Source: Balanoglossus misakiensis (taxonomy: Eukaryota; Animalia; Hemichordata). From it: DNA of 64,000 nt. Positions 1,799 to 64,000 of the stretch are shown one piece after another. A program made the translations under genes and the position numbers. Under the pieces are notes generated by a model that saw nothing but the letters and a program-made list of their open reading frames with translations, ran no database searches and had not been told where the DNA came from. Location of the stretch: assembly GCA_040954595.2 (NCBI GenBank), contig CM082583.2, positions 2,923,060-2,987,059 of the forward strand. The letters are read 5' to 3'. Every line of letters starts with the position of its first letter. Position 1 is the stretch's first letter.

Positions 1799-1870
1799 TT
1801 AAGACATTTTCTTCTTCTTGGCAGCCAAGATACTAGCTGGTATGTCAGGACGTAATTCTCGATACATTGA
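1799..1870 (-). CDS. MCTP1: MCTP exon 21 (last coding exon)
   Basis: tttgcag acceptor, [23 protein letters not shown] then TAA at 1801-1799. Confidence 0.92.
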   Translation of the reverse strand, partial: SMYRELRPDIPASILAAKKKKMS

Positions 1871-37111: not shown

Positions 37112-37748
37112 ATTCGTATACCACCAGTGCACGACAAAACGCAAATTGCTAAATATAGTTTCTTGAACGTGCATAAACCATTGGAATTCCTAAATAACAT
37201 TTTAGTTTCTCTTTACATTAGCCTTGGAATCGGAAAGATCGTCCCTGTGGGCCTGTTGTTCATAATTTTGAAGAAAGAAGCCCAGGGAAATGAATATTTT
37301 ATATTTCGTAAAAAAAATATACCGTCACTTTTACGTATTTTATGTTTTATAGGTAATTACACAAAAATTGTTGTAATCTATCCTGACGTGGTGGAGTATA
37401 GAGTGAAACTCACTGCCCAGGAAAACAAAAACATCAGTTTGTGACGTTGCGAGTTAGATCAGTTGCATTGTAATTAAAACTTTGACGTCTCCTCTCTATT
37501 GAAATATATATGAAATTTCATGAACAAATTTGATAATTACGGGCCCAAGCCAAGCCAGGCTTGGGCCCGTATTGGTTTCGTTGGAATTTTTAGGGCCCAA
37601 GCGCACGCAAGCGCTTGGGCCCTATTGGTTTCGTTGGGGTTTTTTAGGGCCCAAGCGCACGCAAGCGCTTGGGCCCTATTGGTTTCGTTGGGGTTTTTTA
37701 GGGCCCAAGCCCAGCAGGCTTGGGCCCTATTGGTATTACTGGCTTTTT

Positions 37749-41565: not shown

Positions 41566-42987
41566 CTTTCTTTCTTTTTTCTTGTGTCAATTTCTTCGGC
41601 CAACGAGATCTCTGAAACTACTGCAGGTACACTTCTCAAACTTGATACAGTGGTCAAGGTCAATGAGTAGATGTGCAGTGACTTGTGAATAATTAATTAG
41701 TCACGTGACCTGGCGGCCATATTGGATTTTCTGAAAAAATTCAAATCTCAGATCTCAGAAACTACAAGTCAGATCGACTTCAAATTTGGCATGCAGGTAG
41801 ACTACCTTCTACCCATCATTTTTGTAATTGGAAATTTTGCTGTCAATGTTGCAGTTTTTTTGCTACAATTTTTTTTCTGAAATCTGGCTTAAATTTCAAA
41901 AATCTTCTTCTCCAGAACCAGTGATAACCGAGACACGGGGTTTGGGGTATGTGGTCACCTAACTGATGTCTATCAAGTTTGCGAAGATCATTGTGATTGG
42001 TCAAAGATTATGGCGGCCATATTGGATTTTAGAAAAACCATTGTTAAACTCCAAAAATCTTCCTCTCCAGAACGGGCGATGACTGAGTCGCAAGATTCGG
42101 GGAGTATGGTCACTACACTGATGTCTATCAAGTTTGCAAAGAGCATTGTGATTGGTCGAAGATTATGGCGGCCATATTGGATTTTGTAAAAAGCAGTGAA
42201 AAATTGAAATTCCTTTTTCTAGTCTAAAAATTGATAGCATACAAATTCTTTTTATGGATATCAATCGTCATGTGACTAAAATATGTCACAATTTTTTGGC
42301 GATTTTTCACATGACCTTTGACCTACTTATCACGCGTTATTATTTCTGCATATCTAATTCCAGGCTAACCTATAGGGCTAGACGTTTGGTTTTTGATGAA
42401 TGTGGATTAGTGTGTGATCAAAATATTTTGCTACTTTTCATGACCCCTTTGACCTCTGCTGACCTCATTAATTATGTGCATAGCTAATTACAGGCGAACC
42501 AATAGAGCTAGAGGTTTGGTTTTTGTTGGACACAGACCAGTATGGGATCAAAATTTTTTGCCCAAATGTTGCGTGACCTCTGGTGACCTTTGACCTACTT
42601 TCGCATATCTCAGCATCCAGAGCAGATACAGCCATGGCATTTGGTAGGATGGGACCAAAATGTAAAGCCACATTTTTGGGTCACCTATGACACCTGCTGA
42701 CCTCATTAAATATGCACATACCTAATTACAGGCGAACCAATAGAGCTAGAGTTTTGGTTTTTGTTGGACATGGACCAGTATGGGTCAAAAAAAAATTGCC
42801 CAAATGTTGGGTGACCTCAGGTGACCTTTGACCTACTTCACCCTATTTAAGCAGCAAAAATACACACGTCCTTGTTATGTCATGAGATAATACATCCGAT
42901 AGAAAATTCTGTTTCTTCTCATTCATACTGTGCATATATAATTCAAGATCAGCGCTTGGGCCCGACAATGCTGCTCGCAGCTTTAAT
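41566..42987 (+). mobile_element. HINE family B, copy 1 body and 3' end (head at 37645)
   Basis: 3' subTIR gcgcttgggccc is complementary to gggcccaagcgc of heads 37591/37645; stem-loop gctgctcgcagc. Confidence 0.88.
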
Positions 42988-44399
42988 CTTTCTTTCTTTT
43001 TTCTTGTGTCAATTTCTTCGGCCAACGAGATCTCTGAAACTACTGCAGGTACACTTCTCAAACTTGCTACAGTGGTCAAGGTCAATGAGTAGATGTGCAG
43101 TGACTTGTGAATAATTAATTAGTCACGTGACCTGGCGGCCATATTGGATTTTCTGAAAAAATTCAAATCTCAGATCTCAGAAACTACAAGTCAGATCTAC
43201 TTCAAATTTGGCATGCAGGTAGACTACCTTCTACCCATCATTTTTGTAATTGGAAATTTTGCTGTCAATGTTGCAGTTTTTTTGCTACAATTTTTTTTCT
43301 GAAATCTGGCTTAAATTTCAAAAATCTTCTTCTCCAGAACCAGTGATAACCGAGACACGGGGTTTGGGCTATGTGGTCACCTAACTGATGTCTATCAAGT
43401 TTGCGAAGATCATTGTGATTGGTCGAAGATTATGGCGGCCATATTGGATTTTCGAAAAACCATAGTTAAACTCCAAAAATCTTCTTCTCCAGAACGGGCG
43501 ATGACTGAGTCGCAAGATTCGGGGAGTATGGTCACTACACTGATGTCTATTTAGTTTGCAAAGAGCATTGTGATTGGTCGAAGATTATGGCGGCCATATT
43601 GGATTTTGTAAAAAGCAGTGAAAAATTGAAATTCCTTTTTCTAGTCTAAAAATTGATAGCATACAAATTCTTTTTATGGATATCAATCGTCATGTGACTA
43701 AAATATGTTACAATTTTTTGGCGATTTTTCACATGACCTTTGACCTACTTATCACGCGTTATTATTTCTGCATATCTAATTCCAGGCTAACCTATAGGGC
43801 TAGACGTTTGGTTTTTGATGAATGTGGATTAGTGTGTGGTCAAAATATTTTGCTACTTTTCATGACCCCTTTGACCTCTGCTGACCTCATTAATTATGTG
43901 CATAGCTAATTAAAGGCGAACCAATAGAGCTAGAGGTTTGGTTTTTGTTGGACAAAGACCAGTATGGGATCAAAATTTTTTGCCCAAATGTTGCGTGACC
44001 TCTGGTGACCTTTGACCTACTTTCGCATATCTCAGCATCCAGAGCAGATACAGCCATGGCATTTGGTAGGATGGGACCAAAATGTAAAGCCACATTTTTG
44101 GGTCACCTGTGACACCTGCTGACCTCATTAAATATGCACATGCCTAATTACAGGCGAACCAATAGAGCTAGAGTTTTGGTTTTTGTTGGACATGGACCAG
44201 TATGGGTAAAAAAAATTGCCCAAATGTTGGGTGACCTTAGGTGACCTTTCACCTACTTTCAGCAGCAAAAATACACACATCCTTGTTATGTCATGAGATA
44301 ATACATCCGATAGAAAATTCTGTTTCTTCTCATTCATACTGTGCATATATAATTCAAGATCAGCGCTTGGGCCCGACAATGCTGCTCGCAGCTTTAATT
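42988..44399 (+). mobile_element. HINE family B, copy 2 body and 3' end (head at 37591)
   Basis: Near-identical to 41566-42987. Confidence 0.88.
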
Positions 44400-45811
44400 C
44401 TTTCTTTATTCTTATGTCAATCTTTGCTCTCCTAGATCTCTGAAACGGCTACAGGTACACTTCTCAAACTTGCTACAGTGGTCAAGGTCAATGAGTAGAT
44501 GTGCAGTGGCTTGTGAATATTTAATTAGTCACGTGACCTGGCGGCCATATTGGATTTTCTGAAAATGTTTAAATGGCTTCTTCTCAAAAACCACAGGGCC
44601 AATCAAGTTCAAATTTGGTGTATGGTACACATGTCCTCTGCCCTTCAAAAATTGACAATAAAATCCTGAGCGGTCACGTGACCTTGGCCGCCATATTGGA
44701 TTTTCGAAAAAGTACAGTAAAATCTTCAAAAATCTTCTTCTCCAGAACCGGCAATAACCGAGTCATGGGATTTAGGGTATGACATCACCTAACTGATGTC
44801 TATCAAGTTTGCGAAGAGCGTTGTGATTGGTCGAAGATTATGGCGGCCATATTGGATTTTGTAAAAACCAGTGAAAATTAAGAAATCATTTTTCTAGTCT
44901 AAAAATAGATAGCATACAAATTCTTTTTGTTGATATGAGTCGTCATATGACTAGAATATGTTGCAAATTTTTTGGCAATTTTCACATGACCTTTGACCTA
45001 CTTTTTTAAGAACCTGCATATATGCATATATAGCTCATACTACCTGTTCTAAATGTACCAGAGTTCTGATTTTTGTGCACATTGGTATCATCCCTGCCAG
45101 GACCTACCCCAAATATTTTGGTAATTTTGGCAATGACCTTTGACCTACTTTTGACACATCGTTTTTTCTGCATATCTAATTCCAGGCTAACCAATAGGGC
45201 TATAAGTTTGGTTTTTGATGTATGTGGATTTGTATGTGATCAAATAATTTTGCTACTTTTCGTGACCCCTTTGACCTCTGCTGACCTCATTAAATATGCA
45301 CATACCTAATTACAGATGAACCAATAGACCTAGAGGTTTTGTTTTTTTTATACATGGACCTTTATGGTGTCAAAATATTTTGCCCAAATGTTGGGTGACC
45401 TCGGGTGACCTTTGACCTACTTTTGCATATCTCGACATCCACAGCAGATACAGCCTTGGCGTTTGGAGGTATGGGGCCATAATGAAAAGCCAAAGTTTTG
45501 GGTCACCTGTGACACCTGCTTAACTCATTATTTATGTGTATACCTAATTCCGGGCTAACCAAAAGGGCTAGAGGTCTGGTTTTTGTTGGACATGGACCAC
45601 TATGGGTCAAAATTTTCTGCCCAAATTGTGGGTGACCTCTGGGTGACCTTTGACCTACTTAACACTATATCAACACCAAACATAGATATAACCTTGATAT
45701 TTCATGGGATAAAACACAGCATTATGTTTCTACTCATTAATTATGTGCATTTCTAATAATCAGACCAGATAATAGAGCTTGGGCCCGGACAATGCTGCTT
45801 GCAGCTTTAAT

Positions 45812-48065
45812 TACGGGCCCAAGCCAAGCCAGGCTTGGGCCCGTATTGGTTTCGTTGGAATTTTTAGGGCCCAAGCGCACGCAAGCGCTTGGGCCCTATT
45901 GGTTTCGTTGGGGTTTTTAGGGCCCAAGCGCATACCAGCGCTTGGGCCCTATTGGTTTCGTTGGGGTTTTTCTGTCTTTCCTTCTTTCTTCTTTCTTCTT
46001 TCTTCTTCTTTCTTTATTCTTGTGTCAATTCTTTGTCGCTCTAGATCTCAGACACCACTGCAGGTACACTTCTCAAACTTGCTACAGTGGTCAAGGTCAA
46101 TGAGTAGATGTGCATTGAACCCTTGAATTTTTAATTAGTCACGTGACCTGGCGGCCATATTAGATTTTCTGAAAAAATGCAAATCTCAGATCTCAGAAAC
46201 TACAAGTCAGATCGACTTCAAACTTGGTGTGCAGGTAGTCTACCTTCTACCCATCATTTTTGTAATTGGATATTTTGCTGTCAATGTTGCAGTTTTTTTG
46301 CTACAGTTGTTTTTCTGAAATCTGGTCAAAATTTCAAAAATCTTCTTCTCCAGAACCGGCGATAACCGAGTCACGCGGTTTGGGGTATGTGGTCACCAAA
46401 CTGAGGTCTATCAAGTTTGCGAAGATCATTGTGATTGGTCGAAGATTATGGCGGCCATATTGGATTTTCGAAAAACCCTAGTAAAATTTCAAAAATCTTC
46501 TTCTCAAGAACCGGCGATAACCGAGTCACAAGATTTGGTGTGTGTGGTCATTAAACAGATGTCTATCAAGTTTGCGAAGATCATTGTGATTGGTCGAAGA
46601 TTTTGGCGGCCATATTGGATTTTGTGAACAACGATTAAAAAGTAAAAATTCTGTTTCTAGCCTAAAAATTGATAGCACAGAAATTCTTTTTATGGATATG
46701 AATCATCATATGACAAGAATAAGCTATAAATATTTTGGTAATTTTGGCAATGACCTTTGACCTACTTTTGACGCATCATTTTTCTGCATATCTAATTCCA
46801 GGCTAACCAATAGGGCTATAAGTTTGGTTTTTGATGTATGTGGTTTTGTATGTGATCAAAAATTTTTGCTACTTTTCATGACCCCTTTGACCTCTGCTGA
46901 CCTCATTAAATATGCGCATACCTAATTACAGATGAACCAAATGACCTAGAGGTTTGTTTTTTTCTGGACATGGATCAGTATGGGGTCAAAATATTTTGCC
47001 CAAATGTTGGATGACCTCGGGTGACCTTTGACCTACTTTTGCATATCTCGACATCCACAGCAGATACAGCCTTGGCGTTTGGAGGTATGGGGCCATAATG
47101 AAAAGCCAAAGTTTTGGGTCACCTGTGACACCTGCTTAACTCATTAAGTATGCGCATACCTAATTACAGACGAACTAATAGATCTAGAGTTTTTGTTTTT
47201 TTTGGACATGGACCAGTATTTGGTCAAAGAATTTTGGGTGACCTCAGTGACCTTTTACCTACTTTCTCATATCTTGGCATCCACTGCAGGTACAGGCTTA
47301 GCATTTGGAGGGATGGAACACCTCACCGAATCCCACAATTTACCCCATTAATTATTCGCATATATAATTCCAAGCGAACCAATAGGGCTAGAGGTGTGTT
47401 TTTGTTGAATTCAAAAGTTTTTGCCCAAATTTTGGATGAACTGAGGTGACTTTTAACCTACTTTACCATATCTCGGCACCAACAGTAGCTACAGCCTTGT
47501 CCTTTCGAGGGATGGGATCAAAATTAAAAGGCAAATTTTGGGGTCACCTGTGACACCTGCTTGACTCATTAATTACGTGCATACCTGATTCCAGGCCTAC
47601 CAAATGGAATAGAGGTCTGGTTTTTGTTGAACATGGACCAATATGGGGTCACAATCTTTTGCCAAAATTTAGGGTGACCTGACCTGACCTTTACAGGAGT
47701 TACATCCTTTGTTTTTTGAGGGATGGGACAAAAATGAAAAGCTAAATTTTTGGTTAATCTGTGACACCTTCTTAACCTCATTAATTATGCACATACCTAA
47801 TTCCAGGCTAACCAACACAGCTAGCAGTTCCATTTCAGTTGGGCATGGACCAGTATGGCATCAAAATATTTTGGAGCAATTTTTTTGTGAACTTTGACCT
47901 AATTTTACAAATCTCGGCATCCAGGGCAGATACCGCTTTACTCATGTTGTCGGACACCTTACCACATTAAATTTTACGCTGACCAATAGTGGCAGAAGGG
48001 AAGCTGGGACCAGTATGGGACCAAATTTTTGACAAATTTTTGGGTAACCTTGGGATGACCTTTTA
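45812..48065 (+). mobile_element. Second stack: three HINE/Helentron heads (45812, 45865, 45918) and body D with decaying ~240-bp units; no 3' end in the window
   Basis: Heads 45812 and 45865 match heads 37538 and 37591; third head is a new variant (loop cataccag); body shares sequence with bodies B and C. Confidence 0.85.
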
Positions 48066-49425
48066 GTTTTCATTATCGTGATATGTTGAAACACTTAATG
48101 CGTTCTTATACTTCACCTCCTTATTTTGCCTACAACAAATAGTATCCTTAAAAATAAGAGGGCTTACATGTTTTGTGTTTTGGATCTCCACTAGTATGTG
48201 ACAACATTATTTGAGAAATATTTGTGTATTAGACCTTCAAGTTTTCTTTATCTTGGTATCCGGAAAATCTACCAAACCAGATATATTGTACAGAGTACAG
48301 AGAGACATGAAAGTCAGACGTGGACATTTTGTTTTAAGTGGTCAGCGACCTATAATGTAGACTAAAATAAAGAGATGACTACAGTAAAAGGCTTATGTTA
48401 AAAAGCAATGATTCAACTTACAGGTTTATCTGAAGCACATAAAACAAATGGTTGACATCAGTTGAGGTTGGTTTTTGTTATTGCAAGAAACTAAACAAAC
48501 ACAGATTACAATTGTTCACAGTTTTAAGCAATTATATCCAGCTGACAATGGCCAAGTATAATAATAACTAATAATAATAACTAAATAATAAGTTCAGACA
48601 CCATTTAATTTCTGAAAAAGAGGATTAGTGAAATTAAGTTAGCATCTTTCTAAATTGTTTGAACATCCATTTGATACAGTGCATATTTAACACGACAAAT
48701 ACTTAAGAACATATATGTATTATGAGGACATATCTAGTATACAACAAAGCAAATCTGACCTTGACAAAAGTCTACTTGAATTTTAAAATACAGTTCAGCA
48801 TATCCATTAAGACATTTCTTGTTGTGCACAATTTTAGAAAATCAAACGGGACATAGCATTGACAGAAATAGTCATTAAACGTAATCTGACAACTTGATTG
48901 TGTACAAGCCTTAATTGCAGATCATTTGTTAAAGGTACAAAGTAGCTTTTGTTTGCCCTTTTTGATATCATTCAAGAATACAGAGAGTACCTGCATTAAG
49001 TCACTGACTGTGCAATATGCTGTCAGTGCATAACCTAAAAAGGGGTCAGTAAATACCCCTTTGCTGTAAGTAAAGTTGTGATTTTGTGTGTGATACGAAA
49101 TGAATACCTGTACCAAAGTACGTTTCCTTTTGACAAATAACATTGCCATGGCATTGTACATGGCAGTTATACATGAAAGAATACTACACTCTGAGATCTC
49201 ATGCCAAGATCCATGTGGTCTAAATAGTTTGCAACACTGGCTATATATTCAAATACATGGATAAAAGTTTAGCACACAGTGGAAAACTGGGTGGACATCA
49301 TAAATTATTTATGTGAATGTTCAATCTTGTATGTTGATATACAAGCATAGTTCACCAGTACAGTACTGTACTGGTAAACACAGAGCATTAATCCTTTAAG
49401 TCGCTGCACACACACACAGTTTATT

Positions 49426-50008
49426 AGGCTGTTCACAATACTCAGAACGGGTCTGGCCGACCTTTGTCCGGACAATTTTTGTCCCAGTTGAATGGGTTGG
49501 TTTGTATCCTACTCTGGTCCGACTCTGGTCCCACTACGGTGTGTGTGGACACGTTTTGTCCGAATCTGGTCCCAGATTGACATAATAGTGTAGTCCATCG
49601 TTTGACAATGAAGAAAATCGTATGAACAACCATTAGAGGACCAACATGGTTCTGCTTTATAAGGTGAAAGGTTGGCGAGACACCACTGGCCAGGACTGTG
49701 CCAATCACAATGTGAACGGGGACTAAAGATTAGCTTGTCTTGTCACAATCATCAGTGACACGTTTTGCCCGGCCATGGGCCCAGATGTGAACCCACCATA
49801 AGTAGGGGCGCTGAGGCTTAGTCCCATGGACAATGGGTTGCGGAGAGGTGTTACAGTAATTCTTTACACCGGCTCCGGTCTGACCGGCAAATGCTGTCTC
49901 AAATCTAAGCAATTTCAGAACCACTAAACACTGTCCACACCTGATTCTTTAAGATGGTATCTGATCTGAGACGCTTCAGAACCGTCTTAATGGTGTGTAT
50001 GTGACCCT
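49426..50008 (-). mobile_element. Non-autonomous DNA transposon (possibly PIF/Harbinger-like), same family as 15335
   Basis: GC-richer block with imperfect termini aggctgttcacaatac / gtatgtgaccct and homology to 15335-15535. Confidence 0.55.
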
Positions 50009-50359
50009 ATACAGTTTACAGTGTTTCAATAAGTCAAACAACAGGTCCAGTTTTGAATATTAAGTCAACACAAAATGAAAATACATAATTATTTGATTGA
50101 AACCATTCTTGATAATACAAATGACAATTTCAAATCATGTTATAAAATAACTATCTTGACTCAAAATTGGCTATTTACATGGAATACCAAACATCAAGAA
50201 ACTTATTTCAGAATAAAAAGTACAACTTAAATTATTTCTATTACTCTCATAATGCAGGCAAATATCTTTACTGTAATAAAAAATCATCCAGTACAATAAG
50301 TTGTTCAAAATACAGTATTTCATGTTTCTTTTTACAAAATGCAATATATACGCTATACC

Positions 50360-50603
50360 ACACAGTATTAAAAGCAGGTGAATTATGTACATGTACTCAA
50401 TATTGCATACCATATGATCATACAAACAAATGTACACACAGAAGTGAATACCCCATGGTGTAGCAATAAAATTGTTAAATTACACAGTATTAAAAGCAGG
50501 TGAATTATGTACATGTACTCAATATTGCATACCATATGATCATACAAACAAATTTACACACAGAAGTGAATACCCCATGGTGTAGCAATAAAATTGTTAA
50601 ATT
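50360..50603 (+). repeat. 122-bp tandem duplication
   Basis: cacagtattaaaagcagg...aaaattgttaaatt at 50361 and 50483. Confidence 0.95.
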
Positions 50604-50691
50604 GTAATTATATCATACCAAGCAGCAATGTAAATTGTTCTAAAATACTTTTTATATTTAACATAGATTTTATATATACATAGAAAATGAC

Positions 50692-50757
50692 TACATACAT
50701 ACATACATACATACATACATACATACATACATACATACATACATACATGCCTGCATG

Positions 50758-50795
<38 letters not shown>
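50692..50795. repeat. (TACA)n and (CA)n microsatellites
   Basis: Directly visible. Confidence 0.95.
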
Positions 50796-51047
50796 TGCAT
50801 ATACACATGTACATATGTTACAAATGTACATATGCCAGTGCATACATGACAAAGACATACAGACAGATATAACATTATGACAGCCAGGCAGCCTGTCTTA
50901 AATTACTCAATCCTTCGCCTGAGTTTATCTTCAGACAGACAGACAGACAGACAACTCACTAAGGCGTGTAGACAACCTAGTCTTAATTACCCTGTCCTCC
51001 CCCAGAGTTTATATCTTTTTCTGAAAGTTAAATCACAACATGTTAGA

Positions 51048-54000
51048 CAAATTATTTGCAGTTGGTGTATCGCTACCTTATCGTAACCTTATCAAAAGCA
51101 ATCTGGTGGTCAATATTATTTTGCGGTAAGGTAAATACATGTTATGTAAAATGTTGATGTCAGCTTTCTCAGATTATATCATAAGGCAGTTGAACGACAT
51201 GCACACACTATTGCTACAGATCCCGACTACCCACTTTAAAAATTCTTTTAAAATCTCCAATTATGGACATGCTACAGAGATCAATTTAACAGGAAACAAT
51301 TCCTTTGGAAAATACTTTTCCCAACAGCTATATCTATTTTAAATTCAAGTTTCATCCTTTTTTAGTTTTATCCAGTGCTGCAGATGTGCTTTTCATCATG
51401 TTGTCTTATTTGTGTATATACATTGTTATCAAAATGTCATTTATCCTGAATTTATAACTGATTGATGAGCCTCATGAAGACAAGTTTCACAGCTATTGTT
51501 GACAATTAAGTATTTGAATTGATTTAACATAGGAGCCAGTATAAGAACATTTAACCTCTTGCTGGGTAGTTTTGTTTTTATCTAGTCTCACTCCCAGACC
51601 TCATCGCTGTGCACCATAGTGTGCTACTGGCAGTATGACCAGGCAAGGAGCGCAGCGACAAGCACAAGTCGCCCGCCAAATCAGATCACTTGCCCGGTCA
51701 TGTCCTACCACCAGAAGCACACACTTTGCCCTGGTGAAGCAACAAGGTCTGGTACCATCACTCAGCTTTTCCGTAACAAAGGCCATTATTAAATCATGTA
51801 CGTGAATGAGGTTTTTCCTCGTGACGGGTTATATCTTTATTTTTCTAATAACACTTATGTTATTTCAAAACACAACTCTAAATTAATATTTTGATCCTTA
51901 TTGCTTCATGAAAGCTAAAGTATTTTGGTACAACATTTACCGTCACACTTTCTATTCCTTTCTCAGACACAAGATCAATCAATTTATTAGCTTCTGTAGT
52001 TAATTTGCTTCAAATTATTTGCAGTTGGTGTATCGCTACCTTATCGTAACCTTATCAAAAGCAATCTGGTGGTCAATATTATTTTGCGGTAAGGTAAATA
52101 CATGTTATGTAAAATGATGATGTCAGCTTTCTCAGATTATATCATAAGGCAGTTGAACGACATGCACACACTATTGCTACAGATCCCGACTACCCACTTT
52201 AAAAATTCTTTTAAAATCTCCAATTATGGACATGCTACAGAGATCAATTTAACAGGAAACAATTCCTTTGGAAAATACTTTTGCCAACAGCTATATCTAT
52301 TTTAAATTCAAGTTTCATCCTTTTTTAGTTTTATCCAGTGCTGCAGATGTGCTTTTCATCATGTTGTCTTATTTGTGTATATACATTGTTATCAAAATGT
52401 CATTTATCCTGAATTTATAACTGATTGATGAGCCTCATGAAGACAAGTTTCACAGCTATTGTTGACAATTAAGTATTTGAATTGATTTAACATAGGAGCC
52501 AGTATAAGAACATTTAACCTCTTGCTGGGTAGTCTTGTTTTTATCTAGTCTCACTCCCAGACCTCATCGCTGTGCACCATAGTGTGCTACTGGCAGTATG
52601 ACCAGGCAAGGAGCGCAGCGACAAGCACAAGTCGCCCGCCAAATCAGATCACTTGCCCGGTCATGTCCTACCACCAGAAGCACACACTTTGCCCTGGTGA
52701 AGCAACAAGGTCTGGTACCATCACTCAGCTTTTCCGTAACAAAGGCCATTATTAAATCATGTACGTGAATGAGGTTTTTCCTCGTGACGGGTTATATCTT
52801 TATTTTTCTAATAACACTTATGTTATTTCAAAACACAACTCTAAATTAATATTTTGATCCTTATTGCTTCATGAAAGCTAAAGTATTTTGGTACAACATT
52901 TACCGTCACACTTTCTATTCCTTTCTCAGACACAAGATCAATCAATTTATTAGCTTCTGTAGTTAATTTGCTTCAAATTATTTGCAGTTGGTGTATCGCT
53001 ACCTTATCGTAACCTTATCAAAAGCAATCTGGTGGTCAATATTATTTTGCGGTAAGGTAAATACATGTTATGTAAAATGATGATGTCAGCTTTCTCAGAT
53101 TATATCATAAGGCAGTTGAACGACATGCACACACTATTGCTACAGATCCCGACTACCCACTTTAAAAATTCTTTTAAAATCTCCAATTATGGACATGCTA
53201 CAGAGATCAATTTAACAGGAAACAATTCCTTTGGAAAATACTTTTGCCAACAGCTATATCTATTTTAAATTCAAGTTTCATCCTTTTTTAGTTTTATCCA
53301 GTGCTGCAGATGTGCTTTTCATCATGTTGTCTTATTTGTGTATATACATTGTTATCAAAATGTCATTTATCCTGAATTTATAACTGATTGATGAGCCTCA
53401 TGAAGACAAGTTTCACAGCTATTGTTGACAATTAAGTATTTGAATTGATTTAACATAGGAGCCAGTATAAGAACATTTAACCTCTTGCTGGGTAGTCTTG
53501 TTTTTATCTAGTCTCACTCCCAGACCTCATCGCTGTGCACTATAGTGTGCTACTGGCAGTATGACCAGGCAAGGAGCGCAGCGACAAGCACAAGTCGCCC
53601 GCCAAATCAGATCACTTGCCCGGTCATGTCCTACCACCAGAAGCACACACTTTGCCCTGGTGAAGCAACAAGGTCTGGTACCATCACTCAGCTTTTCCGT
53701 AACAAAGGCCATTATTAAATCATGTACGTGAATGAGGTTTTTCCTCGTGACGGGTTATATCTTTATTTTTCTAATAACACTTATGTTATTTCAAAACACA
53801 ACTCTAAATTAATATTTTGATCCTTATTGCTTCATGAAAGCTAAAGTATTTTGGTACAACATTTACCGTCACACTTTCTATTCCTTTCTCAGACACAAGA
53901 TCAATCAATTTATTAGCTTCTGTAGTTAATTTGCTTCAAATTATTTGCAGTTGGTGTATCGCTACCTTATCGTAACCTTATCAAAAGCAATCTGGTGGTC

Positions 54001-54905
54001 AATATTATTTTGCGGTAAGGTAAATACATGTTATGTAAAATGATGATGTCAGCTTTCTCAGATTATATCATAAGGCAGTTGAACGACATGCACACACTAT
54101 TGCTACAGATCCCGACTACCCACTTTAAAAATTCTTTTAAAATCTCCAATTATGGACATGCTACAGAGATCAATTTAACAGGAAACAATTCCTTTGGAAA
54201 ATACTTTTGCCAACAGCTATATCTATTTTAAATTCAAGTTTCATCCTTTTTTAGTTTTATCCAGTGCTGCAGATGTGCTTTTCATCATGTTGTCTTATTT
54301 GTGTATATACATTGTTATCAAAATGTCATTTATCCTGAATTTATAACTGATTGATGAGCCTCATGAAGACAAGTTTCACAGCTATTGTTGACAATTAAGT
54401 ATTTGAATTGATTTAACATAGGAGCCAGTATAAGAACATTTAACCTCTTGCTGGGTAGTTTTGTTTTTATCTAGTCTCACTCCCAGACCTCATCGCTGTG
54501 CACTATAGTGTGCTACTGGCAGTATGACCAGGCAAGGAGCGCAGCGACAAGCACAAGTCGCCCGCCAAATCAGATCACTTGCCCGGTCATGTCCTACCAC
54601 CAGAAGCACACACTTTGCCCTGGTGAAGCAACAAGGTCTGGTACCATCACTCAGCTTTTCCGTAACAAAGGCCGTTATTGAATCATGTACCTGAATAAGG
54701 TTATTCCTCGCGGTGGGTTATATCTTTATTTTTCTAATCACACTGATTTTATTTCAAAACACAAGTCTAAATAATTATATTTTGATGCTTATTGCTTCAT
54801 GAAAGCTGAAGTATTTTGGTACCACATTTACTGTCACATATTTTATTCCTTTCACATACACATGATCAATCAATGTATTAGCTTCTGTAGTTGGTTCGCT
54901 AACAA
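51048..54905. repeat. 963-bp tandem array, four units, overlapping the 3' end of the Helentron ORF
   Basis: caaattatttgcagttgg starts at 51048, 52011, 52974, 53937; units nearly identical; the ORF track repeats with the same period. Confidence 0.97.
54725..54730 (-). terminator. Candidate polyadenylation signal of the Helentron transcript
   Basis: AATAAA on the minus strand about 45 nt after the TAA; a second at 54748-54753. Confidence 0.45.
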
Positions 54906-57900
54906 ATTGTCTGAAACCATGATCTTCCATGAACTTTACAAGTGATGACCGGGACAAGATATCTTCATTGAAATCACCCATGATCAGTTTGCCTCCTGGG
55001 TATTTTTCCATTGCTTTCACCAAACAAACCAAACTTTTTTTGAATACCTCTGCTTTGTATGATGGTGGTCTATAAACTACAGCTACTGTAACATTGATTT
55101 TAGTGACATAAAATGAAATACATTCCAAATTACACACACCCAAATGCAAAATTTCAAAATCATTACATAGTTTGCTATAGACTCCAACACCACCCCGCTG
55201 TTGCAACTGTAGACTTGATGTATTTCTATCAAATTGATTGTAGGATTGAGATCGTGGTTGGTGATTGAATTCAAATCCGCTCAATTGCAAATTACAATGT
55301 GTTCCTTTTTCAGATAACCAAGTTTCCGTCAAACAAATGAAGTCTGCTTCCAAATATTCACTGTCATTGCAAATATCTTTAATGTGATTGACAAGTCCCT
55401 CCACATTATGCAATACAAATGAGCATGTATAATTACTGTGTTCTTTCTGAGTACACTTGGGGAGAAATTTTGGCATTGTTTCCAGGGCTTCTTGGACCTT
55501 TTCATTGCAATATATGGATGATTTGTTAAAGTCATTAATAATGAGACCATCTAATGTTGTCACCCGACTCAATGCCACATATGCCTGTCCTGGTGCAAAC
55601 ATCTTCTTTAAACTGACAACAGCTTTATCAACTGTCAATCCCTGTACCTTATGCACTGTACATGCCCAAGCTAGTTTTAAAGGAAACTGCCTCCTAATAC
55701 CACCATTACTTGCAACAGACATTTCCTGAGGTTCTATAGGGGTACTGTTTACTGGAAGGTCAGATATAGTTATAGGCTTCTTTTTACGCAATCCTTGGCC
55801 AACTTTCTCATTATCAAATACAACATAAATGGCAGCTGGGAATTTTTCATTTGGTTTTACTGCAATGTGACATACTGTCCCAAAAACGCCATTCACCAAA
55901 CCATCAGCCACATCAATGTTATGCGTCAATTGGACTCGTGCACCAACAGCTAGAGTAAGAGTCTTTGGCAAAGTTGTCCTGAACACTTTGACATGGTGAC
56001 CTTCCTTTTTTTCTAGTCGTCCACTTTTAGGATTTCTGCTAAAATCTTCTGCTTCAATACACACAGGATCAGAACATTGAGAATGAAGCATTTCAACATT
56101 AGAGCTATTAACCTCTGCATTTGTAGCAAAAACATGCATTGCCTCAGATGTTTCACCAGTAACACACTTTTGTAACATTGCCACATCACCAGCATTTAGT
56201 GTGTCCCCCTTTTTGTGAACTCTTACTCGATTTAATGCCTCTGCAAATGCACAGTCTTTCTGTCTCATTATTTCAGTTAATTCTACCATACTGAAATTGT
56301 CATTCCACAGATTGACGGATTCACGGTCTATGCACAGTGGACTTGCTTTTACAGGCGGGAGTTGATAAAAATCACCCACAGCAATAACACACACATTCCC
56401 AAATGGTGACTCAGCCGATGACTGTTTGATTTGTCGCAGTCTTCCATGAACATAGTACAGTAACTTTTTGTCTACCATAGAAATCTCATCTATTATCAAA
56501 ATTTGAAGGTTACCAAACTTGCAACGAAGAGTATTGAGCTTTTCTTCACGCAGTGGCTGATATGGCAGCTTTGAGTCAACAGCTATGGAGAATATATGAT
56601 GGAGAGTTGTTCCTTGTATATTAAACGCTGCTACTCCTGTTGGTGCAGTTAAAGCAATTGAAATTCCATCAACATCTGGCATTGCACGAGCTAGAATTCG
56701 TTTGGCTTCATGATATATGCTTTTGATTAAGTGACTTTTTCCAGTACCAGCACCACCAGTGACAAACAAATAAAAGGGTTCTGGATTCTTGCCATTGCTT
56801 TTGTCCAAACACCACTTCCTGACAGTGTAAAACACTTCTGCTTGTTTCTTGTTCAAAGATCTACACATTGCTTCAACCTCATATTTCTTCATTGAATTTG
56901 AAAGTTCTACATGGCAATCATCACCTTTAGGTTTTTTTACCAAGTCCGGAATATCACTGTCATCCACTGGATCATCATCACAGCACTTTTTACCTTCTTC
57001 AATGCATTCCAATCGTTCTAATTCATTTTCTGGACATATTTGAGCCCATGCATCTTCAAGATGGCCATTCTCATCAAGAAATTGTCCAGCTGCATCAATA
57101 GCATCAGCCTCTGTTTCAAATAATGCTTTATTGGCATCTACAATCATTTTAACCTTTTCTAAAGAAGCAGTGCCACATTTCACTGCACCAAGACAATAAA
57201 AATCCTCAAACGATTCAAATCCACTAGGTTTCAGTTGTGATTCCGTACGATATGGGAGAAACAGTTGTAATATACTGCCATAGTGCTTTTCTGGACATTT
57301 GGTAACAGAAAATCTAGCATATCTAACAACAGCACCATCACTTATAGATCTTTTCTGCATGTAACCAACATCATTTTTCAACTTCACTATTGGACTGTGG
57401 CGTTTTTCATTACTCACATTTTTCATTTCTGATTTTGAAACCACTCTGTATTCAGAACAAAATTTTGCAAGACACATGTTGTCAAAATCTACCCCATTTG
57501 GTCTGTTCTTGTACCTGTCTACAATGCTATTCATCCATATCTCTTCCTCATCTAAATCACCACCTTTCATTTTCTTCTGAATTGCAGCTAATGGCAGACT
57601 CATTTTAATTTGATTTTCTCCTGTTGGAATAAACTGAACTTTTCGTGATGATTGTTTCAGTTTCAAACCACATACCCTATAAACAGCTTCCTGGGCACTT
57701 ATTTCCCTGTTGTGCAGATATACACCACCTAACTCTTTCATGGCAGACTTTGCATCCATATTTCCTTCTTTGTTAGCCTCTTTCTGTGCATGTTCCAAGA
57801 GTAAACCCATTTCTCTTTCGGCCTTAGAGATGTATGACACAATGTACACAACACAGGCATAAGCATCCACCACAAACTGAATGTCCATGTTTGCATTCCA

Positions 57901-60900
57901 GCAACGGAGAAGGTTGGTATTATATTGGTTCACCCAAACATCACTTGGCTCACGTTTTAGAACTACACTTGTCTTCTTTGCCAAAATTGCATTTGCTTGT
58001 TCAAACATCTCCTGAGATATGCCAACTGCATTGAACAAATCATCAATAGTATCAATTTGTTTCTCTTTATCACACAGGCATGTCCACACTCGTTCTAAAA
58101 TTTGTCTAGCCTTCTTCTGAACCAATACTGTATCATCCAACTCAAGCAAACTATTTTCAAATTCACTCTCCAGCGATGTAGACATTTGATCATCCTTACA
58201 CTGATCGTCATCTGTTACCTCTATTCCGGTATCTATGCTGACAGATGGGTGGCATATAAAGGTTTTGTTTGAAGGAGGTCGGGGGAAGTTGAATCGACAT
58301 GTAGTACCCTTTTTCTTGCAAGATTTTGAATGCCTTGAGCTGTGTTTCTGGACTGTTTTCACAATCTCATGCAGTACCTCATCCTCCTCTATAGAAGGCA
58401 TTTCACATGTTACATATCTGTCAACAAACTCAACAACATCCTCATCAGAATCTTTGTCCACTTTTGGTGCATTTTCAACCCAAAACAAACAGTGAGTGTG
58501 TGGTGATCCACGCTGCTGAAACTCAACTCGATAAAAATAATCTTTGATCTTCCCAATAGGACTAGCTGGTGACATTATTACCTCATTCAAGAAACAATGG
58601 AATCTATGATCAAACATTCTTGCTGCTGTTACAGGATTTCGTCTCAGGATACCACATTTCTCACACCAATCGAGATCCTCAGCATTACGTGTATCACCTT
58701 CTTCACGTAGGATAGTCTCAATTACTTCTTTCCATCTTAAGTCAGCAGCAGAAAATGAACAGAACCATGTCGGTATACCTAACTGTCTGATCATTGCAAA
58801 AATATCTTTCTGTGTAGCTTGCCAATAAGGAGGAGTTCCTCGTACTGGTTTTAGAAACTTGTAGCCTTCATCACACTTCAATATCTCTCTCAAAGAATCC
58901 CCATCAGTCAGAACATCAGATGTCACCTTTTTGCCACAAGCGTTGGCAGTTCCTTTTCTCAAAGCGATTGAAACATTTGATACAACCTGGTCAAGTTCTG
59001 AACGATATTGTGCATAAAATATGTAGTCTGTGCTTTTTGCAAACCTGTTACTTGCATTCATGAGGCGACTCTGCAGGTATCGTCCTATTGTTATCTTAAC
59101 CTCTCGATCATCGTGAAATGTTGGTGATCCAGTTGGGAATATCACAGGAAAGCACTTAGCTTCATTGAACTTCTCCATCAACACTCTAACAGGTTTATTA
59201 TCCTCGCCAGGAGCAACACAAGCGATATCATCAAAGTGATAATCAAGAATATCCTGACCAATGTCAACTGGTTGAAAGCATGTGTCCATGAATATTCCAT
59301 TAGTATCTCCATCAGGCTCATTTCCATTTTCTGTGTCTGATGCTACATCATTGCCTTCAGTATCTAACAATTTTTCCTCAGTGTTTTCATTACTTTCACC
59401 ATTAGATTTTTCTTCAGTCTTTTCAAGAGTATTTTCCCAAGTGAGATTGAATTTGACATCATTATACCACTTGTTATTTTTCTGTAGGTATTCCAGTGCA
59501 TTTTGAATGTGTCCTTTGTTTACAAATTGATACTGATAACAACCTTTGTAACTTAATTTCCGCTTTAATTTCACCTTTATCATCTGGTCATCCAATTCAC
59601 CTCTAGGCAAAATACTTGTGGCCTTTTCTATATTAGACGGGACACACACAACAGGTCCGTGAACACCATTTTGTCCACCTCTTGGTAGTGCCATCATTTT
59701 CATGAAAGGAATATGCAGTGCAATTAAATGTTGCTCTAAAGAATTCAGACATTTTAATTCATCAGGGATTGGTTTGACATCAAGATTGTTTGCAGCAGCT
59801 TGAACAGGCATCTCTGCACGCAAGAGTTTGCTATGACATGTGTGACAAATCCATAATTTACTGGCTGCACTGCTCTTAAGGGGACAATCAACAATACATA
59901 ATTCACTACAGTTGTGTACATACTCTTGTGTTATGCATTTGTTGGCATTCATTTCACAGAGACCTCCCTTAGAGACATAGTTATCCATCTTACAAACAAT
60001 TACCTGTTTTCTAAAAAGTCGCCGGTGACAAACTGAACATACACAATTTGGCCCAACTGAAATCTGATTCCGGAAATCAATTATAACACGCTCTATATTT
60101 CCCTTTTCAATCTTTGTCACTTTCCTCTCAGTACGTCTTCTCTGCAGTACAGTTTGTTTATAAACGTGATCCTGTTGGTAACGTTCCAAACATTTTTTTT
60201 TGGTCCAGTTTTGAAACTCTTCATCTCTGTTATACTTGTCAAGAAATTGTGCTGCATTCTGACTTTTTTTGTGTTCTCGGAACTTCTGATCGTTTTGGAA
60301 CTTGTCAGCAAATACTGCTGCAGTCTGTCTCTTCTTTTGTTCTCGAAACTCCAGATCTTTTTTGTACTTATGAACACATTGTGCTGCACTCTGTCTCTTC
60401 TTTTGTTCTCGGAATGTCTGATCTTTTTTGTACTTGTCAACACATTGTGCTGCACTCTGTCTCTTCTTTAGTTCTCGGAATGTCTGATCTTTTTTGTACT
60501 TGTCAACACATTGTCTCTTCTTTTGTTCTCGGAAAGTCTGATCTTTTGTGTACTTGTCAACACATTGTGCTGCACTCTGTCTCTTCTTTTGTTCTCGGAA
60601 TGTCTGATCTTTTTTGTACTTGTCAACACATTGTCTCTTCTTTTGTTCTCGGAAAGTCTGATCTTTTTTGTACTTGTCAACACATAGTGCTGCATTCTGT
60701 CTCTTCTTTTGTTCTCGGAATGTCTGATCTTTTTTGTACTTGTCAACACATTGTCTCTTCTTTTGTTCTCGGAAAGTCTCATCTTTTTTGTACTTGTCAA
60801 CACATTGTCTCTTCTTTTGTTCTCGGAATGTCTGATCTTTTTTGTACTTGTCAACACATTGTGCTGCACTCTCACTCTTCTTGTGCTCTCTGTATAGTGG

Positions 60901-62478
60901 AACTTTTTCATATTTTGCCAAACATTGTTCTGCACATACAGTTTTCTGTACTTCACGATATACTAGGTCATGATCATATCTTCCTGCAAGTCTACGTTTT
61001 TTGTTCTCTCTATACAGTACATCTTCATGATATCTCTTTCTACTATCCGATTTTATGTTGTCTCTATATTCAGAATTAGTCTGATAGCGTTCATATTGTT
61101 TAGATGCTTTAGAGCTCTTCAGACTACTGGGTACATTTAATTCATTCAATTTACCTCTTTCACTTTCATACTTTTCACGCCTGAGTTTCTTTTTCAACCG
61201 TTCACCAATGGCTCTACCGCGTTTCTTATTTCGTACTGGTGCGAAACACTGTGTTCCAAAAACGTCATCCAAATGGAACTCTTTTTTCAAACCAATTTGT
61301 TTTGAACACTCATTGTCTGTCACACCCATGCATTCTCCAGTTACATTTTCAATAGGGACAACTTCATTGCAATCAATGTGTGTACAATGACAGTTTTCCA
61401 ACTGTGGTGTCTTCACACACTCAACTACTTCATAATGGTTTCTATTGCGATGGTTCAGGTATATACCAACACCTCTATCAACATTGTTTTTATTGATTAT
61501 ATTACATGAATGTTTCCACCAACTATCGAAACTGTACACGAAAATATTTACATTGAAGAGATTTGTAGTGGCAAGGATTTCAGTTTCTGTAGCCCATGTT
61601 CCGAGATGATCCATTCTGGACTTTGCAATGTAATCAGCAACTGATGTATATCCATCTAACCGTACCCAGCCTGAATAAACTTCCTCATTGGCTTTCAAGT
61701 GATTCACAATGGCCGTTCGAATAACTCCGTGATTTCGCTCAGTCCCACTTATACAATATGACAAGGACCTAAAAAAACAGTTCCCATCACCAATAATTGA
61801 CTTGTAATTACATGGGTCTCCAATTGTTACACTTCCAAGTTTATTGAAAATATCAATATTATTTTTATCTACAATGTCAAATTTGCAACACAGCTGTTCA
61901 CATACATCAAAAGTTAGTGGAGAGAACGAATATACGCTGTCCCCTGTTCCACTACCAATATATAGGTCATCCGATGAATCATTGTCAAGACTATGTTCTT
62001 GCAGAATTTCATTACTTCCTTCAGTCTTATCAACACTTTGATTTTCAGTCTCAAATATCTCATTGTTGACTTTTGTACTTTCATTTTCTCTGTCACTTTT
62101 TCTGATTTTATCCATATTCCTGTTTTTAGAGAGGGCAGGCCCCTCTTTGAATTCATTTCTATTCCTGTTTTTAGAGAGGGCAGGCCCCTCTTTGTATTCA
62201 TTTCTATTCCTGTTTTTAGAGAGGGCAGGCCCCTCTTTGTATTCATTTCTATTCCTGTTTTTAGAGAGGGCAGGCCCCTCTTTGAATTCATTTCTATTCC
62301 TGTTTTTAGAGAGGGCAGGCCCCTCTTTGTATTCATTTCTATTCCTGTTTTTAGAGAGGGCAGGCCCCTCTTTGTGCTCTATAGCTATCCTGTTTTTCAA
62401 GAGGACAGGATCCTCAGACACAACAGTATCTTCATTCTTCTGACTCCTCTTCTTCCTCCAGTATCTACTGCGTGGCAT
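54775..62478 (-). CDS. Helentron (Helitron2-like) polyprotein: OTU protease, repeats, Cys/His cluster, HUH Rep, Pif1 helicase, APE-type endonuclease; 2567 aa
   Basis: Uninterrupted ORF; first ATG at 62478. OTU GDGNCFFR (61777-61791)...HYEVV; CSVC...CHTC; Rep motifs TWFCSFS, VEFQQRGSPHTH (HUH at 58492-58500), YIVSYISK; helicase GGAGTGKS (56734-56757), IIDEISMV, GDFYQLPPV, HKVQGLT, YVALSRV; endonuclease NVEGL, LTETWL, YRPP, GDFN, IDH. Confidence 0.96.
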   Translation of the reverse strand: MPRSRYWRKKRSQKNEDTVVSEDPVLLKNRIAIEHKEGPALSKNRNRNEYKEGPALSKNRNRNEFKEGPALSKNRNRNEYKEGPALSKNRNRNEYKEGPALSKNRNRNEFKEGPALSKNRNMDKIRKSDRENESTKVNNEIFETENQSVDKTEGSNEILQEHSLDNDSSDDLYIGSGTGDSVYSFSPLTFDVCEQLCCKFDIVDKNNIDIFNKLGSVTIGDPCNYKSIIGDGNCFFRSLSYCISGTERNHGVIRTAIVNHLKANEEVYSGWVRLDGYTSVADYIAKSRMDHLGTWATETEILATTNLFNVNIFVYSFDSWWKHSCNIINKNNVDRGVGIYLNHRNRNHYEVVECVKTPQLENCHCTHIDCNEVVPIENVTGECMGVTDNECSKQIGLKKEFHLDDVFGTQCFAPVRNKKRGRAIGERLKKKLRREKYESERGKLNELNVPSSLKSSKASKQYERYQTNSEYRDNIKSDSRKRYHEDVLYRENKKRRLAGRYDHDLVYREVQKTVCAEQCLAKYEKVPLYREHKKSESAAQCVDKYKKDQTFREQKKRQCVDKYKKDETFREQKKRQCVDKYKKDQTFREQKKRQNAALCVDKYKKDQTFREQKKRQCVDKYKKDQTFREQKKRQSAAQCVDKYTKDQTFREQKKRQCVDKYKKDQTFRELKKRQSAAQCVDKYKKDQTFREQKKRQSAAQCVHKYKKDLEFREQKKRQTAAVFADKFQNDQKFREHKKSQNAAQFLDKYNRDEEFQNWTKKKCLERYQQDHVYKQTVLQRRRTERKVTKIEKGNIERVIIDFRNQISVGPNCVCSVCHRRLFRKQVIVCKMDNYVSKGGLCEMNANKCITQEYVHNCSELCIVDCPLKSSAASKLWICHTCHSKLLRAEMPVQAAANNLDVKPIPDELKCLNSLEQHLIALHIPFMKMMALPRGGQNGVHGPVVCVPSNIEKATSILPRGELDDQMIKVKLKRKLSYKGCYQYQFVNKGHIQNALEYLQKNNKWYNDVKFNLTWENTLEKTEEKSNGESNENTEEKLLDTEGNDVASDTENGNEPDGDTNGIFMDTCFQPVDIGQDILDYHFDDIACVAPGEDNKPVRVLMEKFNEAKCFPVIFPTGSPTFHDDREVKITIGRYLQSRLMNASNRFAKSTDYIFYAQYRSELDQVVSNVSIALRKGTANACGKKVTSDVLTDGDSLREILKCDEGYKFLKPVRGTPPYWQATQKDIFAMIRQLGIPTWFCSFSAADLRWKEVIETILREEGDTRNAEDLDWCEKCGILRRNPVTAARMFDHRFHCFLNEVIMSPASPIGKIKDYFYRVEFQQRGSPHTHCLFWVENAPKVDKDSDEDVVEFVDRYVTCEMPSIEEDEVLHEIVKTVQKHSSRHSKSCKKKGTTCRFNFPRPPSNKTFICHPSVSIDTGIEVTDDDQCKDDQMSTSLESEFENSLLELDDTVLVQKKARQILERVWTCLCDKEKQIDTIDDLFNAVGISQEMFEQANAILAKKTSVVLKREPSDVWVNQYNTNLLRCWNANMDIQFVVDAYACVVYIVSYISKAEREMGLLLEHAQKEANKEGNMDAKSAMKELGGVYLHNREISAQEAVYRVCGLKLKQSSRKVQFIPTGENQIKMSLPLAAIQKKMKGGDLDEEEIWMNSIVDRYKNRPNGVDFDNMCLAKFCSEYRVVSKSEMKNVSNEKRHSPIVKLKNDVGYMQKRSISDGAVVRYARFSVTKCPEKHYGSILQLFLPYRTESQLKPSGFESFEDFYCLGAVKCGTASLEKVKMIVDANKALFETEADAIDAAGQFLDENGHLEDAWAQICPENELERLECIEEGKKCCDDDPVDDSDIPDLVKKPKGDDCHVELSNSMKKYEVEAMCRSLNKKQAEVFYTVRKWCLDKSNGKNPEPFYLFVTGGAGTGKSHLIKSIYHEAKRILARAMPDVDGISIALTAPTGVAAFNIQGTTLHHIFSIAVDSKLPYQPLREEKLNTLRCKFGNLQILIIDEISMVDKKLLYYVHGRLRQIKQSSAESPFGNVCVIAVGDFYQLPPVKASPLCIDRESVNLWNDNFSMVELTEIMRQKDCAFAEALNRVRVHKKGDTLNAGDVAMLQKCVTGETSEAMHVFATNAEVNSSNVEMLHSQCSDPVCIEAEDFSRNPKSGRLEKKEGHHVKVFRTTLPKTLTLAVGARVQLTHNIDVADGLVNGVFGTVCHIAVKPNEKFPAAIYVVFDNEKVGQGLRKKKPITISDLPVNSTPIEPQEMSVASNGGIRRQFPLKLAWACTVHKVQGLTVDKAVVSLKKMFAPGQAYVALSRVTTLDGLIINDFNKSSIYCNEKVQEALETMPKFLPKCTQKEHSNYTCSFVLHNVEGLVNHIKDICNDSEYLEADFICLTETWLSEKGTHCNLQLSGFEFNHQPRSQSYNQFDRNTSSLQLQQRGGVGVYSKLCNDFEILHLGVCNLECISFYVTKINVTVAVVYRPPSYKAEVFKKSLVCLVKAMEKYPGGKLIMGDFNEDILSRSSLVKFMEDHGFRQFVSEPTTEANTLIDHVYVKGIKYVTVNVVPKYFSFHEAISIKI
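60250..60861 (-). repeat. Coding tandem repeat, 54/66-bp units (QCVDKYKKDQTFREQKKR with or without QSAA)
   Basis: About nine near-identical units plus degenerate flanking units in the ORF translation. Confidence 0.95.
62115..62375 (-). repeat. Coding tandem repeat, 45-bp x6 (E[YF]KEGPALSKNRNRN)
   Basis: tattcctgtttttagagagggcaggcccctctttg recurs every 45 bp. Confidence 0.97.
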
Positions 62479-62869
62479 CTGGAACAAAGCAAATATACTG
62501 TCTAGTTAGGTTTTTACTATCCTTTCACCACCAGACTTCGGATAACCTTCTCATCAAATCACATCACTAGTGATTATAACCAGTAAAAAGCAGTGGAACT
62601 TTTAACAGACAGAAGTGATTTATAGAAACTAAGTCCGAACAAGGTTGTAATTCAACAGCAACACATAATACACACATATCCCCATGCCTGTATACAAATA
62701 GACACATATACACACAAAGTATCACAGACACACTTTTTTTCTGCTGGAACACAGGATAAGGCTTAAATCCTAACCCCTGTATGACTTAACATTCTGGCAT
62801 TCACATTAGAATGTGCTCAGACAAATCTCAGATCTGAGTGAAATTTTCTTTAAAAATAATTTCCACTAT

Positions 62870-63632
62870 TTAGCAATATCAAGTCCAAGTACGATAGGCA
62901 TACATGTATGAATTTGCACAGACATAAACAAATACACGGACACCCCAACATCCACCATGTACAACCAAATAAGGCTTCAGACCTGACCCTGAATGACCCG
63001 ACATTTTCCCATTTACGTTGCAATGTACTCAGCCAAATCTGAATAAAATTTCACTTCAAAACCATTTCCACCAGTTAGCAATATCAAGTCCAAGTCTGAT
63101 AGGCATACATGTATGAATTTGCACACACATAAACAAATACACGGACACCAAAACATCCACCGTGTACAACCAAATAAGGCTTCAGACCTGACCCTGAATG
63201 ACCCGACATTTTCCCATTTACGTTGCAATGTACTCAGACAAATGTGAATAAAATTTCACTTCAAAACCATTTCTACCAGTTAGCAATATCAAGTCCAAGT
63301 ACGATAGGCATACATGTATGAATTTGCACACACATAAACAAATACACGGACACCCCAACATCCACCGTGTGCAACCAAATAAGGCTTCAGACCTGACCCT
63401 GAATGACCCGACATTTTCCCATTTACGTTGCAATGTACTCAGCCAAATCTGAATAAAATTTCACTTCAAAACCATTTCCACCAACTAGCAATATCAAGTC
63501 CAAGTACGATAGGCATACATGTATGAATTTGCACACACATAAACAAATACACGGACACCCCAACATCCACCATGTACAACCAAATAAGGCTTCAGACCTG
63601 ACCCTGAATGACCCGACATTTTCTCATTTTCA
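62870..63632. repeat. 205-bp tandem array, about 3.7 units, upstream of the Helentron ORF
   Basis: tagcaatatcaagtccaagt at 62871, 63076, 63281, 63486. Confidence 0.96.
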
Positions 63633-64000
63633 TTATGCACTCATACGAATCACAAACGATTGTTATAGACCTGATTTACACTTAACAATTTAATATACAA
63701 GTTCAATAACAAGGCAGGGATATCAAGAAACATACATCATACCAATGTTTTATTGAAGCCACTGTTGTAAGAAACGGCACTATCCAATGGTCTTAACACC
63801 ACATAGCACAATGATTGTTCTGCACATACAAGTCCCTTCCTTTCTGATGTATTCAATAAACACCATTTCTATGAACTATTCTAATATGTTTTTGTTCCAT
63901 CACCCCTGAATAACAAATTCAAAGAAATGGGCTAGTGCTTTTACATGTTAACAGACGGTGCATGGAAGTGGACAATCATCCTATCTGATATTAAACCACA

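Follow-up and report, generated by a model that had tools for sequence, protein, structure and literature searches.

We analysed a 64,000-nt window of the Balanoglossus misakiensis genome (contig CM082583.2, assembly GCA_040954595.2, forward strand 2,923,060-2,987,059), and positions below are counted from its first letter. The window consists of AT-rich DNA of animal type, with an exon-split host gene on its left side. Beyond this gene lies a nest of transposable elements of the Helentron type, followed on the opposite strand by a long open reading frame (ORF) for a Rep protein fused to a helicase (RepHel). The nest contains a total of eight 5' ends (heads) and five 3' ends (tails), all of which carry the subterminal inverted repeat (subTIR) GGGCCCAAGC. 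Five of the heads are closed by the five tails and form what we term stack 1; the remaining three form stack 2, and our principal concern is whether the last of these, head D at 45918, is the 5' end of the element that encodes RepHel.

Nested heads and tails

Each head is laid out as a hairpin, a TATTGG spacer and a T-run, while each tail comprises the reverse-complement subTIR, a GCTGC..GCAGC stem-loop and a terminal TATAT or TTTAAT. Exact matches to GCTTGGGCCC number 21 in the window, every one inside 37541-45949. On the plus strand, sequence scanning placed the heads of stack 1 in the order C, B, B, A, A (37538-37799, with starts between 37538 and 37749), followed by the bodies and tails of A1, A2, B1, B2 and C (37800-45811), which contain internal repeats of 238 and 155 bp. 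The tails lie at 39882, 41532, 42954, 44365 and 45777, the last ending at 45811, and their order (A, A, B, B, C) mirrors that of the heads. Type B was assigned by sequence (a 12-bp match); A and C were assigned partly by position, the A tail also matching the C head. All three types are noncoding and possess paired subTIRs with an 11-12 bp match between head and tail, a 5' inverted repeat, TTC/TTTC microsatellite runs and a 3' stem-loop. They are HINEs, that is, non-autonomous Helentrons. B1 and B2 are 98.6% alike (1.4% differences), and A1 and A2 show 6.7% differences.

Excision of each inner element in silico joins the T-run to the microsatellite without any repeat, as compared within the window, in keeping with a T|T or TTTT|T/C site and no target duplication. 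In all six cases (6/6) the nested element sits in the first T-run of its host, 50-54 nt from the host 5' end and in the same orientation. Each body offers 8-20 other runs of at least five T on the same strand, and the chance of first-T-run placement, calculated by hand for five independent events, is at most about 1 in 100,000. Both C heads are preceded by TAAT (37529-37538 and 45803-45812), and the A, B and D heads by TTTT; FoHeli1/2 insertion is reported to occur after TNAT (PMC5148889).

To the right of stack 1, perfect hairpins with 14-bp stems begin exactly at 45812, 45865 and 45918, all on the plus strand. Head C of stack 2 (45812-45864) adjoins tail C with zero bases between them and has 0/48 differences from the head at 37538. 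Head B (45865-45917) likewise shows 0/48 differences from the heads at 37591 and 37645, and head D (45918-45971), the putative 5' end of an autonomous element, differs from the B heads at 3/48 positions. The initial annotation had reported these three heads to be without a tail up to 64000, and scans for hairpins, subTIRs and tail patterns all agree. The tail stem-loop pattern was found on neither strand between 45972 and 64000, and right of 45949 there was no match to GCTTGGGCCC with 0-1 mismatch, and four with two mismatches. A candidate tail, CCATGGGCCC at 49773, was rejected since no stem-loop follows it.

The left arm of D (45972-48060, plus strand) comprises a TTTC microsatellite, a 155-bp dimer, a body that is at first B-like and then C-like, and decayed 238-bp repeats. 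Block identities and site counts bear out the earlier description of this change: D keeps the B layout over the initial ~700 nt (84-95%, block by block), but lies closer to C across alignment columns 760-1260, where D and C agree at 48 sites, D and B at 23, and B and C at 16. Judged by these alignments, body D is a B/C mosaic. Its 238-bp repeats drop to ~70% identity and stop near 48060. D does therefore fade as had been described, whereas the accompanying description of the DNA beyond as unique does not hold for all of 48065-54775, which has several repeats inside.

The RepHel gene on the minus strand

The intact Rep-helicase ORF noted at the outset was recovered by ORF scan and domain search as a stop-free frame of 2570 aa on the minus strand (54775-62487; P0001), with the domain order OTU-DUF6570-Rep-Pif1-endonuclease (EN). 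Its first ATG, at 62478, stands directly behind the splice-acceptor-like sequence TTGTTCCAG, which suggests an additional exon further right. The Rep domain (Helitron_like_N, PF14214, E 2e-30) is fused to a Pif1 helicase (PIF1, PF05970, E 2e-26) with Walker A and B motifs. OTU (PF02338, E 9e-6) and DUF6570 (PF20209, E 6e-21) lie upstream of Rep, and an AP endonuclease (Exo_endo_phos, PF03372, E 1e-7) occupies aa 2360-2551 at the C-terminus. Alignment showed the catalytic motifs (HUH, Walker, EN and OTU) to be conserved. HUH motif 2, FYRVEFQQRGSPHTH at aa 1318, is preceded by F/Y-x-R and has G-S-P within it; motif 2 with FYR and GSP characterises the Helentron Rep (PMC4067079), and DUF6570 is a marker of HLE2 (HELIANO, PMC11417382). 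By the definitions of Thomas et al. (PMC4067079) and HELIANO (PMC11417382) the predicted protein is that of a Helentron (HLE2). A canonical Helitron (HLE1; 5' TC, 3' CTRR, GLP, no EN) does not fit the GSP, EN and DUF6570 features or the subTIR-type ends. The activity of OTU domains in transposons is described as untested (PMC9741609).

Among the best 120 of 782 matches, proteins of Haliotis, Saccoglossus and Myxine are nearest to P0001, at 59-60% identity over residues 800-2570, followed by fish proteins at about 48-60%, and the clade is frequent in fish and marine invertebrates. A 26-row tree without an outgroup placed P0001 weakly among marine invertebrate and hagfish rows and was not used.

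Several tandem arrays accompany the gene. In-frame repeats at 60213-60935 (54/66 bp) and 62115-62415 (45 bp) encode K/Q/E-rich peptide repeats, and a 205-bp array of 3.8 copies upstream of the ORF (62756-63651) would lie inside the right arm of the element. At the other end, the last ~45 codons and the 3' flank belong to a 963-bp array of four units (51048-54908). Three of these units differ at 1-4 bases and the ORF-bearing unit at 28-30, nearly all in the right ~240 bp; the inner units are thus near-identical, with about 87% likeness at the ORF-bearing edge, a pattern that fits an old duplication followed by recent expansion.

One element or several

Public contigs from three runs of one sample (X1-X3), possibly the window's own, were aligned on 46650-50350 and 54910-60200; their depth is no copy number and is compared without a single-copy baseline. 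In X1, six of the eight records listed for 46650-50350 have 0-1 differences, and their depth of 440-504 across 47294-49977 runs flat through the decayed repeats, the junction at 48065 and an embedded dispersed repeat. Two records cross the junction (47970-48163), one an exact match at depth 440 and the other differing at 11 of 194 positions at depth 189. Because two contig variants bridge it, the junction should exist at more than one locus, which supports a single multi-locus unit that takes in head D, its body and the sequence beyond 48065. The X1 depth at variant sites in 48-50 kb (633-755) is close to that of the ORF records with 1-11 differences (520-950), and three further ORF records have 87-89% identity at depths of 74-96. 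Within the limits of depth lacking a single-copy baseline, this hints at several copies in the ORF family. Run X3 barely covers the ORF.

The noncoding DNA between arm and array (48061-51047) contains the dispersed repeat (~49372-50007), a 122-bp dimer and a TACA/CA microsatellite. The window version of the dispersed repeat is as deep in X1 as D itself, so that its acquisition probably preceded the spread of D. The repeat is also 81% like a fragment at 15336-15532.

Certain observations weigh against joining head D to the ORF. No read or contig spans the two, the contigs covering the pair of aligned stretches given above. Depth in X2 is uneven (468-3671 for near-exact records on 46650-50350), and the mean summed depth in X1 is about 2560 for the ORF and about 970 for 48014-49253, a ratio of about 2.6 (sums of X1 bins) which indicates more relatives of the ORF than of the D arm. 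The scan of hairpins and minimum free energy for a foreign terminus was too insensitive, given folding energies of just -2.5 to -4.9 kcal/mol for the known tails. Finally, most Helentrons have their ORF in the other orientation, head to tail (PMC4067079). Reversal is nonetheless no objection here, because the nearest named protein belongs to Helitron-1_DR, one of two elements named as reversed (Bao & Jurka 2013, PMC3627910). Compared by eye in the RepHel alignment of that paper, P0001 matches Helitron-1_DR at 113/137 positions of the Rep core and at a further 52/75, while the figures for Helitron-2_DR are 70/137 and 29/75.

The earlier proposal that head 45918 is the end of an autonomous element therefore survives in part: the D arm and the DNA past 48065 form one unit with a bridged junction, and a reversed ORF has its precedent, while the connection from head to ORF is one that we infer. 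That head D and the ORF belong to one element is, in our judgement, probable. The fuller reading, to which we assign a probability of roughly 0.7, is that head 45918 is the 5' end of a Helentron of more than 18 kb, of the Helitron-1_DR type with a reversed RepHel, innermost in the nest and surrounded by the outer part of a C[B]-C[B] dimer.

By analogy with published copies, the unclosed heads may lack tails of their own, a point absent from the initial annotation. Heads C, B and D might move as one composite, from head C to the D tail, which inserted where stack 1 ends in TAAT|T; a single tail would then follow, without the bodies of B and C. In FoHeli, copies whose 5' end (the first 31-85 nt) is repeated transpose as units (PMC5148889), two to five 5' termini are found on 2/14 and 8/15 long FoHeli1 copies in two strains (PMC13342296), and the autonomous HelenXT233 has two left termini (PMC11417382). 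The TAAT preceding both C heads also makes the tail end itself a plausible target for such a composite. However, stack 1 is closed entirely, with five tails for its five heads, and a multi-headed composite must by coincidence repeat the outer C, B pair of stack 1 and land on a C tail. We regard this explanation as unlikely.

Decidedly less probable is that two elements are present, D being a non-autonomous HINE of ~4.5 kb or longer, interrupted between 50350 and 51048 by a Helentron of the usual orientation with different ends. This interval falls outside the contig-covered stretches, and the usual orientation would place a 3' end there (PMC4067079). The greater summed depth over the ORF than over the D arm would also be accommodated, and Fig. 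8 of the Fusarium paper models reversed ORFs as nested composites (PMC5148889). Against this, per-record X1 depths are similar on both sides, the nearest named relative is itself reversed (PMC3627910), and loose contig ends, among those listed for 48065-50350, occur only at the edges of the dispersed repeat. That a segmental duplication or a composite of the assembly, rather than a mobile unit, accounts for the locus is very improbable: the window is repeat-rich and the depths lack a single-copy baseline, yet exact-match contigs bridge the 48065 junction, the differences within the B and A pairs (1.4% and 6.7%) show that these are not collapsed copies, and the ORF is intact.

Proposed history and known systems

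For a single reversed Helentron at the centre of the nest, we propose the following history. Rolling-circle transposition would copy the elements into TTTT|T/C sites without target duplication, as the literature on the family suggests. RepHel bound to a resident 5' hairpin would probably steer the incoming copy to the nearest T-run, ~52 nt downstream, and the newcomer would push the body and tail of its host rightward. Head-adjacent insertion in 6/6 cases is what the Fusarium self-insertion model implies (PMC5148889). In stack 2 the outer pair, C[B, would derive from a tandem C[B]-C[B] dimer as its second half, the two halves having been filled separately afterwards; this dimer is the simplest solution because the two outer heads are identical to those of stack 1 and the tail-head joint has no gap. 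Into the resident B element, at the T-run that follows its head, the autonomous Helentron would have inserted; its own tail, of the GGGCCC type, would lie beyond the right edge of the window. The dimer predicts the D tail, then a B body and tail, then a C body and tail. We expect this full three-tail order with moderate confidence only, because multi-head, single-tail Helitron2 copies are published.

Two further proposals of the initial annotation are weakened. The first, that D was the source of B and C, sits poorly with D being an 84-95% mosaic while B1 and B2 are 98.6% alike. The left arm of D is 84-95% like B or C, and the tail-proximal sequence of B and C has no match in 48066-64000. D is better regarded, on these comparisons, as a sister or recombinant of B and C than as a recent template. 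The second, that the enzyme of D built the nest, meets the difficulty that the innermost copy is the youngest: as the last arrival, D cannot have built the outer layers from its present site. Furthermore, X1 contains a second RepHel relative, about 85% identical and of similar depth. Only a family-level claim about the nest-building enzyme stands; it is probably the RepHel family, not the D copy, that mobilises A, B and C in trans via the common subTIR.

Tentatively, and as a possibility rather than a probability, the locus may be a complete fossil of head-targeted self-insertion, in which the transposase homes on resident 5' hairpins and uses the first T-run ~52 nt behind them, with the autonomous driver as the latest arrival. 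If so, the enzyme, both end sequences and a precise target would be available, and target choice and the part played by the endonuclease domain in an animal Helentron could be assayed directly.

Searches for relatives elsewhere gave little. Alignment of RepHel (A1) with viral contigs produced only ~30% matches in the helicase domain, P0001 alone had zero matches there, and head and tail patterns had none. Among metagenome contigs the same alignment reached 79 loci, none of them close, and the GGGCCC subTIR motif was present in 0/45 of those screened (L081-L125). The tail pattern occurred at five loci in genome contigs, of which two look animal with a true tail and three look like chance; none of the five has the RepHel ORF or a head. 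Tail motifs at L160:10001-10029 and L161:2498-2525, the latter 28/29 identical to tail A2, stand in animal-like DNA within two bacterial metagenome-assembled genomes, and these contigs are likely host contamination. In published supplements, GGGCCC was absent from those of two papers; in the 12 of 14 files searched for a third, it occurred 28 times in one sequence file, where the two matches shown are unrelated.

The host gene has minus-strand exons at 37111-36992, 35457-35910 and 16231-16350, one with a C2 domain (PF00168); the gene may resemble those for MCTP proteins. The nest begins ~430 bp upstream of its apparent first ATG (37111), likely in the promoter region. Its introns harbour two short foldback inverted repeats (24305-24472 and 30343-30485) resembling miniature inverted-repeat transposable elements, and a (GTGCA)n microsatellite of 102 copies spans 7614-8123. 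No Rfam match was found within 37000-64000.

The type of element, the reversed ORF and the stacked heads are already published features. Zebrafish Helitron-1_DR, a Helitron2/Helentron, has the closest RepHel in the Bao & Jurka alignment, and its RepHel is reversed relative to a 5' hairpin and a 3' asymmetric terminal inverted repeat (ATIR) with hairpin (PMC3627910), as we infer here. This likeness concerns protein and orientation, and closer unnamed proteins exist in Haliotis, Saccoglossus and Myxine among the best 120 of 782 matches; the available portion of Bao & Jurka (PMC3627910) makes no mention of nesting. The minority orientation is shared with Helentron-Da-40 (PMC4067079). Helentrons, HINEs and DINE-1 (PMC4067079), together with Cg_HINE (PMC7492417), resemble the present elements in their 5' subTIR with inverted repeat, microsatellite, central tandem repeats, 3' subTIR with stem-loop, and T-rich target without duplication. 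Helentron proteins also share the FYR and GSP of Rep motif 2, EN and OTU (PMC4067079). Published HINEs, however, are deletion derivatives 84-99.9% identical to their partner (PMC4067079, PMC7492417), whereas D is a B/C mosaic. In X1, B/C-like depth is about a thousandfold that of D-specific DNA. If our reading is right, an abundant HINE group would gain an intact candidate driver, whereas the oyster HINEs were described with no such driver assigned (PMC7492417).

In FoHeli1 (PMC5148889, PMC13342296) and HelenXT233 (PMC11417382), too, an autonomous HLE2 carries a series of short 5' ends in direct repeat, ascribed to self-insertion. Those elements possess several heads with one tail (up to five 5' ends with one 3' end in FoHeli1; PMC13342296), whereas stack 1 keeps all of its bodies and tails in mirror order. 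The literature searched contained no nest five deep that retains all its tails in mirror order, but the Fusarium paper draws a two-layer nest as its model (PMC5148889). By analogy with that model, stack 1 is best described as its un-transposed intermediate, five deep and in an animal. On this reading, the locus would display the full nested intermediate of the Fusarium model for multi-head Helitron2 elements, together with a defined and testable target site.

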